The notes under the pieces are model-generated. The model saw only the letters and a program-made list of their open reading frames with translations, searched no databases and was not told the DNA's origin. A stretch of DNA of 32,502 nucleotides from a virus (taxonomy: Duplodnaviria; Heunggongvirae; Uroviricota; Caudoviricetes). Location: the IMG/VR virus record IMGVR_UViG_2778261222_000005; one strand, written 5' to 3'. Both the position numbers and the translations under genes were made by a program. Shown here piece after piece: positions 9,997 to 30,090 of the stretch (within the stretch, counting starts at the first letter, position 1; every line of letters begins with the position of its first letter).

Positions 9997-10015
9997 GGGG
10001 GTGCTGAACACCCCC
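9997..10015 (+). promoter_or_regulatory. conserved late-promoter motif, copy 1 (upstream of lysis cassette)
   Basis: GGGGGTGCTGAACACCCCC; core GTGCTGAACACCC (10001-10013) is identical to copies at 18160-18172 and 30076-30088. Flanks form a 7-bp inverted repeat around CTGAA. Downstream CAGTACCC is shared with copy 2. Confidence 0.5.
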
Positions 10016-10161
10016 AGCAGTACCCACCACAGCATACCGTTTACCCTGTCCACTCAGACCACAAGACACCTTAAGGGATAGCGCCCGGCAAAAGTCATTC
10101 TGTGCCTTTGACCGGGTGTTATTTACGGGCCGTCAGTGGCTCAGATTTACAGGAGAAACTC

Positions 10162-10554
10162 ATGTCTGAACCCTTATCAGGCGGCGGAGCTGTGGCAGTC
10201 ACCATCGGTGGTGCCAGTGTGTTTGGCCTTCTCACCAATACCGATTTCGGGGTTGTGGTGGGCGCGTTTGCCGGAGCGCTTTTTGTTGTCACGCAGCAGA
10301 AAGAAATCCCGGTATGGCGAATGGCTATTCATCTGCTCGTCGCGTTTGTGGTTGGCGTTCTGGGGGCTGGCGTGGCTGCGTCACTGATGCAGTGGCTGAC
10401 CCACTACAACGACAAGCCGCTCGATGCATTGTGTGCGGTCGGTGTCTCGGCGTTATCCATCAAGATACTGACCTTTCTTTATCAACAGGAAATTTCATCG
10501 CTGTTCGGCCTGTTTTCCAGACTGCGCGGCGGAGGGGGGGGAAATGGAAAGTAG
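10162..10554 (+). CDS. holin-like membrane protein
   Basis: ATG at 10162 with AGGAG RBS (track start 10102 is an upstream GTG); ~131 aa with several Gly/Ala-rich TM segments; sits just upstream of the endolysin. Confidence 0.55.
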   Translation: MSEPLSGGGAVAVTIGGASVFGLLTNTDFGVVVGAFAGALFVVTQQKEIPVWRMAIHLLVAFVVGVLGAGVAASLMQWLTHYNDKPLDALCAVGVSALSIKILTFLYQQEISSLFGLFSRLRGGGGGNGK

Positions 10555-10840
10555 CCTTGCCGGTATCGTGAACGTCTGGCTGTGTCTCGCCATTGTGCTG
10601 GGGTTGTTTGTGTATCGCCGCCACGGTGCGGCGCATAAACCGATGATTACCTGGCTGGCGTACTGGCTGATGCTCGGCTACGTCATCATCCCGTTCCGCT
10701 GGCTGTCCGGTACATACACGCACTCCAGTTGGCTGGTTGTGGCGCTGAATCTGGTTTTCTGTGCGCTTATCGTGTGGGCGCACGGGAATTTGTCAAAAAT
10801 CCTTTCGTTACTGAGGCATCCACATGAAATCAAAAGATAA
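10544..10840 (+). CDS. second holin/antiholin-like membrane protein
   Basis: 98 aa with 2-3 predicted TM helices; GGAGGGGGGG RBS; overlaps the previous gene end and the endolysin start. Confidence 0.5.
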   Translation: MESSLAGIVNVWLCLAIVLGLFVYRRHGAAHKPMITWLAYWLMLGYVIIPFRWLSGTYTHSSWLVVALNLVFCALIVWAHGNLSKILSLLRHPHEIKR

Positions 10841-26881: not shown

Positions 26882-28230
26882 TGGGCTGGGCTGAAAACCT
26901 GCAAAACGCTTCCTTTCGTGGCGTGCAGTTTGAGGTGCTGAATACTGACGAACAAATCAGCCGCGACCATGCGGTCTATGAATACCCGTTTGTTGACGGG
27001 GCGGATTTGCACGACCTCGGACGCAAGGCGCGACCATTCCGCATGACGGCGTTCCTGTGGGGCGATGACTATGAATATAAACTCGGAAAACTGACCGCCG
27101 CCCTGGACGAAGGCGGCGATGGTGAACTGATTCATCCGGTTTATGGCTCTGTGCCGTCGGTGATTGTGACCGGCTACAGCATCCGCCATGACGCAGAAAG
27201 CCCGGACAGCTGCACCATTGACATGAGTTTTCTGGAAAACCGCACTGGTAGCGCGTTGTTCAGCACCCCGTTACCGGAGCTGTTCGCGCAACAGTTGTTT
27301 GATGAACTGGACACTTTACAGGCGCGGTTAAGTGATTTTTTTGATGCCGTTACTGCACCTTTAAATACCGTTAACAGCATGATTAAAAAAGCCCAGACAG
27401 TGCGTGCCACACTGGTGAATACCCTGCTGTCGTTCAAAAGTGATTTTGTCTCCACTGTCGATAATATCGTGTCACTGGCAGGCGAACCCGGAAAATTTAT
27501 CAATGAACTGGCAGAGGTGCTGGAAATCCACACATCAGATGTCGGGCAACCGGTGCCGGTTCTGCAACGTGTTGATTCTGCCACCCGGACCGGGTTGGCA
27601 GGAGAGACGACCGTCGCCAGTTCTGCGACAGTGATGAACTGCTGGAATAAGGTCATCACTGATATGGATGAATTTGTTGCGCTGCCTGTTGCCCTGGTCA
27701 GTGGCGATAAAGTACCGGAGGTGGTACTTCCTGCGGATGCCCCGCCAGACGATGTGCAGGATGTGAAAGCAGTTTACGCAACACAGGCCGCATCTGAACT
27801 GGCCAGTGTTGCAATGGCGATACTGGTTGATGATGCGCAGTCAGAACAGCTGATACCGGCGGATATCGGGCGACTGGTCGGGGATGTGCGCACCCGCTTA
27901 CAGGCAGCCATCACGCTGTTCCGTGAACGCTATGAAGGCGAACGCGAACGGATAACCGAAACCGCATCACCGCTGGGACTGATGTACCCGGAAATCATTC
28001 AGAGCATGAAAAACGTGGCGGCATCCGTGCAGGATGTCGTCCTGCTGGTTCTGTCACGCCGCCCACCGCTGACGCAGAAACAGGTGCAGGCGGACAGCTG
28101 TCTGCTGTTGCTGGCGTGGCAGTGGTACGGTGATTACAGCCGTGCGGCAGAGCTGCAACGTCTGAACCCGCAGCTGCGTGACCCGAACAACATAACCGCC
28201 GGGATGGTGATTAATGCCTACGCAAAATAA
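26881..28230 (+). CDS. DNA circularisation protein (Mu N / gp43-like)
   Basis: 449-aa ORF overlapping the tape-measure stop (TGATG); position and size of Mu N. Confidence 0.75.
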   Translation: MGWAENLQNASFRGVQFEVLNTDEQISRDHAVYEYPFVDGADLHDLGRKARPFRMTAFLWGDDYEYKLGKLTAALDEGGDGELIHPVYGSVPSVIVTGYSIRHDAESPDSCTIDMSFLENRTGSALFSTPLPELFAQQLFDELDTLQARLSDFFDAVTAPLNTVNSMIKKAQTVRATLVNTLLSFKSDFVSTVDNIVSLAGEPGKFINELAEVLEIHTSDVGQPVPVLQRVDSATRTGLAGETTVASSATVMNCWNKVITDMDEFVALPVALVSGDKVPEVVLPADAPPDDVQDVKAVYATQAASELASVAMAILVDDAQSEQLIPADIGRLVGDVRTRLQAAITLFRERYEGERERITETASPLGLMYPEIIQSMKNVAASVQDVVLLVLSRRPPLTQKQVQADSCLLLLAWQWYGDYSRAAELQRLNPQLRDPNNITAGMVINAYAK

Positions 28231-29425
28231 CGACGACAAAATCAGCCTGGTCATTGCCGGAAGGTCGCATTCTGACTGGAGCAGTTATCGTATTGACAGC
28301 GATTTCCTGAAAGCTGCCGACGGCTGGCAGCTTCAGCTGGGGCTGCCTGAAAAGGTGTTCCCGGCGGATATCGTCCGGGGCGCACAAATCCGGTTGCAGG
28401 TGGGAGATGAAACGGTGCTCAGTGGGCGCATAGACAGCGTGCGCCGTAGTGTGTCCCGTCAGAGCTGCACGCTGGCCCTGTTCGGGCGTGATGATGCCGC
28501 CATCCTGGTGGACTGTGCCGCGCCGGTGTTCAGCGCCAACCAGTTGACGCTGGACGAGGTCATCGACAGGATTGTCAGACCGCTGGGGATACAGCGCATC
28601 CGTATTCAGGCGTCCGGTGTGTCACGTAATGACAAGGTCGTTATAGAGCCGGGGATGCGTGCGTGGGATGCACTGGCCAAAGCTGCCGCCGGTCGCGGCT
28701 TATGGCCGTGGTTTGAGCCTGACGGGACGCTGGTTGTGGGTGGTCCAGACTACACTACCACGCCGGTGGATACGCTGATTCTGAAGCTGGACGGCACCGG
28801 GAACAACGTGATGGAGCTGGACGATACCCGGTCCATTAACGGCTGTTTCTCCGAACTGACGGTGCTGGCCCAGAGCCACGCCCGCCGCGCAGACAGCAAG
28901 AAACAGGTGGCCGTGGTGCCGCTGGATATCTGGAACGAGGACGGCAGCGTGCGCACATTATCCGGGCAGGACAGCGGTAATACGGACAGTGGTCAGACAG
29001 GCATTCATAACATGAAAGCCGTGGCCACCGACCCCACCGTGGATTATTACCGCCCGCAGATTATCACCCAGGGCGACACCAGCAATCTGGAGCAGGTGAA
29101 CTGGCGCGCAAAAAAAATGATGAGTGATGCCCGCCTGTCGGGGCTGGATATCGTCGCACTGGTTGCAGGTCATCGCACGGCAGATGGTGTTCTGTGGCAG
29201 CCCGGCCAGCGGGTGCGGATTGTCAGCGAACTCCACGGCATTGATGCCATCTTTTTCCTGATGGGGCGTGAGTTCAGCGGAGGCCGGAACGGGCAGACAA
29301 CCCGGCTTCGCTTTAAGGAGGACGGCGTGTGGATACCTGACGCCTTCCCGCGCGAGAAGAAACGCCATCACCGCAGGGGCAAAAAGAAAAAAGAGGTCGC
29401 CATTGTTAAGGTCTGGGAGAAATGA
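28214..29425 (+). CDS. baseplate hub / tail protein (Mu P / gp44-like)
   Basis: 403-aa ORF; position after N; basic C-terminal tail. Confidence 0.75.
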   Translation: MPTQNNDDKISLVIAGRSHSDWSSYRIDSDFLKAADGWQLQLGLPEKVFPADIVRGAQIRLQVGDETVLSGRIDSVRRSVSRQSCTLALFGRDDAAILVDCAAPVFSANQLTLDEVIDRIVRPLGIQRIRIQASGVSRNDKVVIEPGMRAWDALAKAAAGRGLWPWFEPDGTLVVGGPDYTTTPVDTLILKLDGTGNNVMELDDTRSINGCFSELTVLAQSHARRADSKKQVAVVPLDIWNEDGSVRTLSGQDSGNTDSGQTGIHNMKAVATDPTVDYYRPQIITQGDTSNLEQVNWRAKKMMSDARLSGLDIVALVAGHRTADGVLWQPGQRVRIVSELHGIDAIFFLMGREFSGGRNGQTTRLRFKEDGVWIPDAFPREKKRHHRRGKKKKEVAIVKVWEK

Positions 29426-30075
29426 TGTGGGACAAGGTTAATCAGCGCATACAGCAGGCACTGGCCGCCGTTCGCCAGGCATTCAGGGTGGTAACCGGTA
29501 CGGTGGACAGTTCGACCAAAGTACAGCTACTTCAGCTGAACGGGCTGGCAGGCGAACAGCTGGACGGTGCGGAGTATTTTCAGCATTACGGCCTCACCAC
29601 ATCCCCGCCGCCCGGCTCGATGGGTATTGCCGTTCCGCTGAATGGTAATACCTCCCATACCGTCGTCGTGGCCACAGAGCACGGCGCATATCGCCTGACG
29701 GAACTGAAACCCGGCGAGGTGGCGCTGTATACCGACGAAGGCGCGAAAATCGTACTGAAGCGCGGGCGGGTTATTGAGCATGAATGTGATGTTTATCGCG
29801 TGAAATGCAAACGCTATGAGGTTGAGGCAGAGGAAAGCGCCGCATTCACAACACCGTTACTGACAGCCAGTGACAAGCTGACGGTGGAAGGCAAAATCAC
29901 CGGCAACGGTGGCATGGCCATCAGTGGGGGCAAGGGATACACTGCCACCTTTGAAGGCAATATCAACCATGTGGGTGGAGTGATTACCTCCGTTGACGTC
30001 ACCATTAATGGCGTTAAAATCGGAACGCATAAACACGATACCCCTCACGGCATATCTGGCCTGCCGCATAATTAA
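29422..30075 (+). CDS. baseplate spike protein (gpV-like, Mu gp45-like)
   Basis: 217 aa; OB-fold-like N-terminus and Gly-rich beta-helix-like C-terminus ending with His residues (THKHDTPHG). Confidence 0.75.
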   Translation: MMWDKVNQRIQQALAAVRQAFRVVTGTVDSSTKVQLLQLNGLAGEQLDGAEYFQHYGLTTSPPPGSMGIAVPLNGNTSHTVVVATEHGAYRLTELKPGEVALYTDEGAKIVLKRGRVIEHECDVYRVKCKRYEVEAEESAAFTTPLLTASDKLTVEGKITGNGGMAISGGKGYTATFEGNINHVGGVITSVDVTINGVKIGTHKHDTPHGISGLPHN

Positions 30076-30090
30076 GTGCTGAACACCCTC
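30076..30090 (+). promoter_or_regulatory. conserved late-promoter motif, copy 3 (upstream of baseplate operon)
   Basis: GTGCTGAACACCCTC; core identical to copies 1 and 2; ~53 nt upstream of the gp46-like ATG at 30129. Confidence 0.5.

Follow-up and report, generated by a model that had tools for sequence, protein, structure and literature searches.

The late genes of bacteriophage Mu are served by four promoters (those for lys, I, P and mom), which have a -10 element but no usable -35 element and work with an activator of the Mor/C family (PMC2582627, PMC4461284). Mu C protects positions -30 to -55, and at Plys positions -52 to -34 are required (PMC2582627); structures of Mor/C transcription complexes have been reported only recently (bioRxiv 10.1101/2025.05.02.651988). 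In phage T4, the genes e (lysozyme), soc, 49 and I-TevI have a late promoter within a hairpin; in the longer early transcripts this hairpin conceals the ribosome-binding site (PMC3014915). Here we analyse a 13-base-pair (bp) motif, GTGCTGAACACCC, that recurs in a viral DNA stretch of 32,502 nucleotides (nt) (IMG/VR record IMGVR_UViG_2778261222_000005), the whole of which we refer to as the window. We consider it quite likely that the three copies of this motif are upstream activator boxes of three late promoters in a Mu-like prophage, which would most likely amount to a familiar type of switch that uses a new recognition sequence, has its third promoter in another place and probably produces leaderless messages of its first genes. 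If correct, this describes how late genes are switched on in a group of Mu-like prophages that is common but unstudied and occurs also in many other enteric genera, and it can be tested directly, since the box and its cognate activator are specified and a transcript start is predicted for each of the three sites.

According to the mechanism we propose, the Mor/C-family protein encoded at 9191-9658 would bind the box at about -53 to -30 and let the host sigma-70 polymerase use promoters with a weak -10 element (TACCCT, CATCAT and CAGACT, respectively) and no real -35. Unit 1, starting at about 10054, would comprise the genes for lysis, packaging and head assembly; unit 2, from about 18214, those for the head and tail; and unit 3, from about 30129, those for the baseplate wedge and the tail fibres. 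A preliminary description of the window had already suggested that the motifs are Mor/C activator sites of three late units, and this proposal is supported by the conservation of the sites at the same gene junctions, by their fixed spacing to a -10-like hexamer and by the way they track the activator subfamily.

Three copies of the motif in a Mu-like prophage

The window represents a Mu-like Escherichia coli prophage, about 98% identical to the prophage residing within eutC of the enteropathogenic E. coli (EPEC) strain E2348/69. Its genes run in the order ner, transposase A, B, GemA, the Mor-family gene (9191-9658), two holins, a GH108 endolysin, terminase, portal, F, G, the protease/scaffold gene I, the major head protein gene T, sheath, tape measure, N, P and gp45-gp48.

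An exact search confirmed the earlier report of a 13-bp core that occurs three times, each time in an intergenic position; all three copies (10001-10013, 18160-18172 and 30076-30088) are on the plus strand. None of 100 dinucleotide-preserving shuffles of the window contained any match to GTGCTGAACACCC, and a chance origin of the three copies is excluded. The shared sequence extends beyond the core in the way first noted, copies 2 and 3 having the 15-mer GTGCTGAACACCCTC in common and copies 1 and 2 having CAGTACCC, which is in register in both, 5 nt past the core. A search of the window with up to two mismatches returned three additional matches (1030, 27254 and 28524), all on the minus strand and within coding sequence; these matches are not members of the motif set. 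The three boxes, with their scores in the weight matrix described below, are as follows.

10001-10024, plus strand: copy 1, upstream box of the putative lysis/packaging promoter (13-mer at 10001-10013 plus CAGTACCC; 13.4 bits)
18160-18183, plus strand: copy 2, upstream box of the putative head/tail promoter before gene I (19.7 bits)
30076-30099, plus strand: copy 3, upstream box of the putative baseplate-wedge/tail-fibre promoter (25.6 bits)

Copy 1 lies between an open reading frame (ORF) of 95 amino acids (aa; 9686-9973) and the first holin gene (ATG at 10162), copy 2 between the virion morphogenesis gene G (ending at 18004) and gene I (ATG at 18214), and copy 3 begins one base past the stop codon of gp45 (30075), with the ATG of gp46 (30129) following 53 nt on. 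Two distances given in the preliminary description need adjustment. The ATG is 54 nt (I) or 53 nt (gp46) from the start of the core rather than 45-53 nt, and the leader of about 160 nt ascribed to copy 1 corresponds to a gap of 148 nt between the copy and the holin ATG, of which about 108 nt would be transcribed as a leader.

Several other identities of the motif were considered and rejected. An intrinsic terminator does not fit, as no T-run follows the motif on the plus strand and the stem is absent from copy 3 and from relatives; a repeat of the repetitive extragenic palindromic (REP) kind does not fit a set of only three copies. A sigma-54 reading of copy 2 (TGGCAG..GCT) has the wrong spacing and does not extend to copies 1 and 3, and the conserved bases do not agree with LexA-like or CRP-like sites, as judged without a formal scan. 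A full-text literature search for the motif strings retrieved only unrelated primers.

The box is shared by a family of Enterobacterales prophages

Matches covering at least 80% of a 10.5-kb query (window 9000-19500) were found in 55 of 5,426 complete E. coli genomes. The copy-2 relatives obtained from E. coli genomes were all more than 95% identical and too close for footprinting, and a megablast search of a phage collection revealed no close cultured relative, the only similarity being 82.8% over about 540 bp to Yersinia phages. Diverged relatives were gathered via the T protein, an endolysin and the activator. The resulting comparison set comprised 80 viral loci found via the T protein (99% to 56% identity) and 19 genome loci, and a weight matrix built from 54 distinct boxes was used for scanning.

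Judging from these relatives, GTGCTGAACACCC is the local form of a box common to the family. Enterobacterales relatives carry the box (consensus CCACTGAACCCCTTCAnCTGAAT) ahead of the lysis genes, of head gene I and of the baseplate gene gp46, invariably on the plus strand, and even in relatives with I and gp46 proteins of only 47-64% identity CCACTGAACCCCTTCAnCTGAAT is found at the same distance to the start codon. Close relatives show the 13-mer variants GTGCTGAACTCCC and GTGCTGAACCCCC, and one of them (L015) has CTGCTGAACTCCC at two sites and GTGCTGAACTCCC at the third. High scores in the diverged relatives were confined to the plus strand before the lysis gene, I and gp46, as far as the respective locus extends, with no high-scoring site elsewhere in the roughly 21 kb scanned for each. 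The family core, TGAA-CCCC-TTCA, is a short dyad (TGAA-N4-TTCA) around a G+C-rich spacer, with the discriminating bases located just 5' of it.

Two further weight-matrix matches in the window were discarded: one at 12614 (minus strand) has no -10 element at the required offset, and one at 31890 (plus strand) is missing from the E2348/69 prophage. The remaining 3 kb of the latter prophage contain neither a fourth site nor a mom gene. Three loci (L168, L177 and L180) have an activator homologue without a recognisable box or an intact late region.

Promoter geometry

Offsets were counted from the C of CTGAA in 109 distinct site sequences representing all three classes. At offset +38 the pattern NANNNT is found in 102 of the 109 sites (94%), and no other offset has it in more than 16%; A occupies +39 in 105 sites and T occupies +43 in 102. 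These two bases correspond to the A at position 2 and the T at position 6, which are the best conserved in the sigma-70 -10 element. The corresponding hexamers of the window are the following.

10042-10047, plus strand: -10-like hexamer TACCCT of copy 1, at offset +38; predicted transcript start at about 10054
18201-18206, plus strand: -10-like hexamer CATCAT of copy 2, at offset +38; the I start codon (18214) lies 7 nt on
30117-30122, plus strand: -10-like hexamer CAGACT of copy 3, at offset +38; the gp46 ATG (30129) lies 6 nt on

From this arrangement we infer that transcripts start at the predicted positions. Because the offset of the -10-like hexamer is fixed, the box would lie at about -53 to -30 relative to the predicted start, and this position matches, as far as the prediction holds, the one bound by Mu C. 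A second, CTGAAT-like element of the family sites falls in the -35 position, where only a CTGATT-like sequence is present; at copy 3 it is CTGATT itself (30093-30098). The earlier comparison with the late promoters of Mu, which are devoid of a good -35, is supported by the fixed -10, the lack of a recognisable -35 and a dyad box predicted to lie at about -55 to -30.

The similarity to Mu concerns the activator family, the promoters with a -10 and no usable -35 (PMC2582627, PMC4461284), and the activator site at about -55 to -30 with a short dyad around a G+C-rich spacer (PMC2582627); as in Mu, the lysis genes and head gene I each have a promoter ahead of them. The differences begin with the recognition sequence, which is TTAT..ATAA in Mu but GTGCTGAACACCC here (family consensus CCACTGAACCCCTTCA). 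Since the Mu-type sequence is absent from the boxes, the sites would be Mu-like late promoters but not strict C-protein sites, as is to be expected with a divergent activator. There are also three late promoters here rather than four, no mom gene being present in the window or in the E2348/69 prophage, and the third precedes gp46, whereas in Mu it is located inside gene N, upstream of P.

Two alternatives can be weighed against these data. First, the motif might act at the RNA level, as a small hairpin (GGGUG-CUGAA-CACCC) that signals processing, stability or antitermination in the long late transcripts. GGGTG/CACCC stems are indeed possible in copies 1 and 2, and copy 1, the poorest match to the family box of the three (13.4 bits), is embedded in a palindrome with 12-nt arms (9992-10020). 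We nevertheless find this very improbable: the stem of copy 3 has only 3 bp, the CTGCTGAACTCCC or CCACTGAACCCC of relatives cannot form one, it is the sequence and not the pairing that is conserved, the distance to the -10-like hexamer is fixed at 38 nt, and an Rfam scan of the whole window identified no RNA family. Second, the repeats might be module-boundary or recombination sequences, or remnants of mobile elements, with no role in transcription. All three do sit at junctions of functional modules, and the lysis module past copy 1 has been exchanged between relatives, some having the holin-holin-GH108 arrangement of the window (10162-11369) and others a single endolysin of 214 aa (L023, 357-1001). 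Such an origin seems to us even less probable, as the repeats occur on a single strand with fixed spacing to the -10-like hexamer and the start codons, the box is conserved among relatives of 47-60% protein identity although the sequence on either side has diverged, its variants go with the activator subfamilies, and no terminal repeats or target duplications were seen. The box is retained with either lysis module.

The putative activator and its association with the box type

The putative activator is encoded upstream of copy 1.

9191-9658, plus strand: gene for a Mor/C-family late activator of 155 aa, C-type subfamily (Pfam PF08765 Mor, PHROG 836)
9625-9652, plus strand: intrinsic-terminator-like hairpin followed by a T-run (-20.6 kcal/mol, z-score -3.2), overlapping the last activator codons

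The assignment to the Mor/C family made in the preliminary description is upheld by a Pfam Mor score of 29 bits (cut-off 24.9) and by a match to PHROG 836, 'late transcriptional activator', at 2e-42. A profile search of PDB with the activator at the default threshold returned nothing, and the best PDB sequence matches, Mu C (9l0x and 9vw8) and Mor (1rr7), are weak (E 0.04-0.3); a profile of the activator family recovers Mu C at 1.5e-4. The protein ends in QVGLFD, of which QVGLF resembles a beta-clamp-binding motif, similar to the QPDLF of MuC (PMC12867686). All examined family members with a complete C-terminus end in Q..LF or Q..LFD, and the QVGLF codons of the window gene sit within the terminator hairpin. 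The gene does lie upstream of copy 1, as was originally stated, but not immediately so, given that the terminator and the 95-aa ORF intervene. It is preceded by a terminator (9101-9121) and by a sigma-70-like promoter sequence, TGTACA-16-TATAAT (9134-9161). In many relatives the activator gene directly follows gemA, like mor in Mu.

All phages examined have one Mor-family gene 0.3-1 kb upstream of site 1, and the proteins fall into two subfamilies, each going with its own type of box. The C-type subfamily (..S[H/R]RQA.A.LCPRYG..LFD), found in the window and in L033, L166, L167 and L169, accompanies [G/C]TGCTGAAC boxes, which have TG just 5' of CTGAA, and the Mor-type subfamily (..SSLMAMT.LCPKYGFSDRFAW..LF) accompanies CCACTGAAC boxes with CA in the same place. 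The copies co-vary within one phage, as exemplified by the three CTGCTGAACC..TCATCTGT boxes of L033. Prophages of Xenorhabdus ehlersii, Photorhabdus cinerea and Morganella morganii possess both paralogues in tandem; in these, the C-type gene is directly preceded by a CCACTGAAC promoter, and TGCTGAAC promoters follow this gene and precede I. From these dual-activator prophages, the best available evidence on the matter, we infer that the box is read by the adjacent activator. The two types would constitute a natural Mor/C specificity pair, CCACTGAAC with Mor-type proteins and TGCTGAAC with C-type proteins.

By their arrangement of genes and boxes, the dual-activator prophages appear to follow the logic of the Mor-to-C cascade of Mu: as with Pm and Mor, one box type stands before the second activator and the other at the late operons. 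Unlike in Mu, the two box types of the family are set apart mainly by having either CA or TG as the two bases 5' of CTGAA. The window, with a single Mor-family gene in place of the Mor-C pair of Mu, has lost, or never had, the first (Mor) tier of the cascade. In the two-activator prophages the first Mor paralogue is located directly upstream of the second activator gene; in the window, a 158-aa ORF (8614-9090) is found between GemA and the activator gene. The same prophages (L166, 9912-10001; L167, from 9902; L169, from 9908) have a hairpin and a T-run after the CCACTGAAC promoter, the 5' arm of the hairpin beginning just past the -10; this looks like a promoter placed within a terminator, where only read-through RNA would terminate.

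It is conceivable that the sites are late promoters whose box is bound by a host factor or by another phage protein, such as the products of the 158-aa ORF or of the 95-aa ORF. The former has no match in Pfam or PHROG, and the latter occupies the space between the activator gene and copy 1, a position filled in relatives as well. We rate this possibility as improbable, because the CA/TG variant of the box goes with the Mor-family subfamily, both from one lineage to another and inside the three dual-activator prophages, the homologue of the 95-aa protein in E2348/69 is only 45% identical although the boxes are the same, and the position of the box fits the known action of Mor/C proteins (PMC2582627). 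Binding by the Mor/C-family protein itself thus remains our preferred explanation.

Probably leaderless first genes of two late operons

The start codon of gp46 is found at +50 in 26 of 29 distinct sequences, and that of I at +51 in 34 and at +50 in 8 of 43. Taken together, 68 of the 72 distinct I and gp46 sites have the start codon at one of these two offsets, which is 7-8 nt past the T of the -10; sigma-70 polymerase normally starts 7-8 nt after this T. A four-base sequence resembling a Shine-Dalgarno (SD) element at -17 to -4 was seen at none of the 72 sites, compared with 29 of 37 other genes of the window. The window's own I and gp46 have no SD sequence either, and the start of I at 18214 is also the RefSeq start. 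Since the start codon coincides with the predicted transcript start and no SD sequence precedes it, we predict that the messages of I and gp46 have no leader or almost none; a 5' end at the start codon, or only a few bases away from it, seems to us probable from this spacing.

The Mu promoter PI, by comparison, gives a leader of about 21 nt with an SD sequence, whereas here the start codons of I and gp46 abut the -10. Transcription of lambda cI from PRM yields a leaderless E. coli phage mRNA that begins at the A of the start codon and has no SD sequence. Here, in distinction to cI, the genes predicted to be leaderless head two large late structural operons, in an arrangement conserved family-wide; to find such genes in first place in large late operons would be unusual among phages of E. 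coli.

A hairpin over the start codon of gp46

The putative third promoter coincides with a strong inverted repeat.

30106-30134, plus strand: inverted repeat forming a 13-bp hairpin (arms 30106-30119 and 30121-30134, 93% complementary)

This hairpin has the -10 hexamer at its tip and the ATG of gp46 in its 3' arm, and its fold energy is -24.9 kcal/mol (z-score -6.2). Across 23 distinct sequences, 89.6% of cells are paired, compared with 27-43% in slid controls; seven pairs have changed on both sides, and none of 500 shuffles reached the observed values. Among the relatives, a change of the start codon from ATG to GTG is accompanied by a T-to-C change in the 5' arm. By computation, the start codon of gp46 is unpaired with a probability of 0.00 in read-through RNA and of 0.78 in RNA starting at 30129. 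Because the -10 lies at the tip, the late transcript is predicted to lack the 5' arm, and only RNA started upstream would fold. We lean, if with modest confidence, towards the view that the hairpin blocks translation of gp46 from read-through RNA, so that only promoter-initiated RNA would be translated, as is the case with T4 gene e.

A comparable hairpin occurs at the lysis promoter of distant relatives, where the 5' arm extends from the last base of the -10 and the 3' arm contains the SD sequence and the A of the ATG. It likewise covaries, in an arm-only alignment fitted to the structure; this alignment was used since MAFFT/RNAalifold misaligned the 3' arms. For the I class no single structure fits, the hairpins occurring in two registers. 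The accessibility computed for the start codon at copy 2 is 0.97 in late and 0.05 in read-through RNA, with a structure that is not significant, and copy 1 shows no such effect in the same comparison.

The inverted repeat at copy 3 might alternatively act in DNA, either as the operator to which a dimeric repressor binds or by forming a cruciform that aids promoter opening. It is centred on the -10 hexamer, and Mu C has been reported to act at promoter opening at Plys, PI and PP (PMC4461284). We regard a DNA-level role as unlikely, because the arms vary by compensatory substitution with no fixed sequence and follow the first base of the start codon, and because the lysis hairpin of relatives lies downstream of the -10, again over the SD sequence and the ATG. 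The hairpin tracks the translation start and not the promoter; it is therefore read here as an RNA device like those of the T4 genes e, soc, 49 and I-TevI. As in these genes, the hairpin covers the start codon (copy 3) or the SD sequence and ATG (lysis gene of the relatives), and the predicted late start falls within or past the 5' arm, so that only read-through RNA folds. Unlike T4, which employs gp55 and gp33, the system would rely on sigma-70 and a Mor/C activator, belongs to another phage lineage, has the -10 at the hairpin tip and is predicted to produce leaderless RNA. If correct, promoters set within hairpins over the start codon would likewise be out of the ordinary among E. coli phages, and together with the leaderless first genes they would carry further a type of control so far documented mainly in T4.

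A broader proposal, which we put forward tentatively and with somewhat more doubt than belief, is that a widespread Enterobacterales family of Mu-like prophages embeds its late promoters in hairpins, with the -10 at the tip and the start codon or SD sequence in the 3' arm, making read-through RNA untranslatable and activator-initiated RNA leaderless and translatable, and that the two-base change from CA to TG beside the box, together with a duplicated activator, converts a one-step cascade into the two-step Mor-to-C cascade.

Observations that weigh on the other side

Our interpretation of the three sites has to be balanced against several observations. The right half of the dyad is degenerate in the window, reading CCCA, CTCC and CTCA instead of TTCA. 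The -10 hexamers of the window are poor, with 3-4 of 6 matches, and a sigma-70 consensus scan, which demands A at position 2 and T at position 6 of the -10 hexamer, identified no complete promoter at any of the three sites; such a blank result is expected for activator-dependent promoters, yet it does not count as evidence in their favour. No box accompanies the activator gene itself, and the link between activator and box derives from a handful of independent lineages, about five of them C-type. Of the 29 distinct gp46-class sequences, four, all from relatives, have GTG as the start codon, a disadvantage where leaderless messages are to be translated in E. coli. Finally, a strong hairpin is present at copy 3 only, that at copy 2 being weak (z-score -1.6) and copy 1 having none.

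The predicted lysis leader and neighbouring features

Copy 1 is the only one of the three with a long structured leader predicted after it.

10054-10161, plus strand: predicted leader of the lysis operon, about 108 nt, with a hairpin at 10076-10124 and the SD sequence AGGAG before the holin ATG (10162)

The leader hairpin has a fold z-score of -2.8, and close relatives show a compensatory change in it from CCCGG/CCGGG to CCCTG/CAGGG; one relative (L010) is without the hairpin. A separate post-initiation control of lysis, as suggested in the preliminary description, would be plausible, copy 1 alone having such a leader.

The 95-aa ORF between the activator gene and copy 1 (PHROG 7152) has a good SD sequence and no evident promoter of its own, and in relatives an ORF is found in the same place; in E2348/69 it is replaced by the homologue of 45% identity mentioned above, with the boxes unchanged. 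The gap between G and I contains, upstream of copy 2, an AT-rich palindrome, AATCGTTTTTAAAA-GGG-TTTTAAAAACGGTT (18094-18124). The annotation of Mu places a gyrase cut site in its own G-I gap, and the palindrome could be a UP-like element or a gyrase site.

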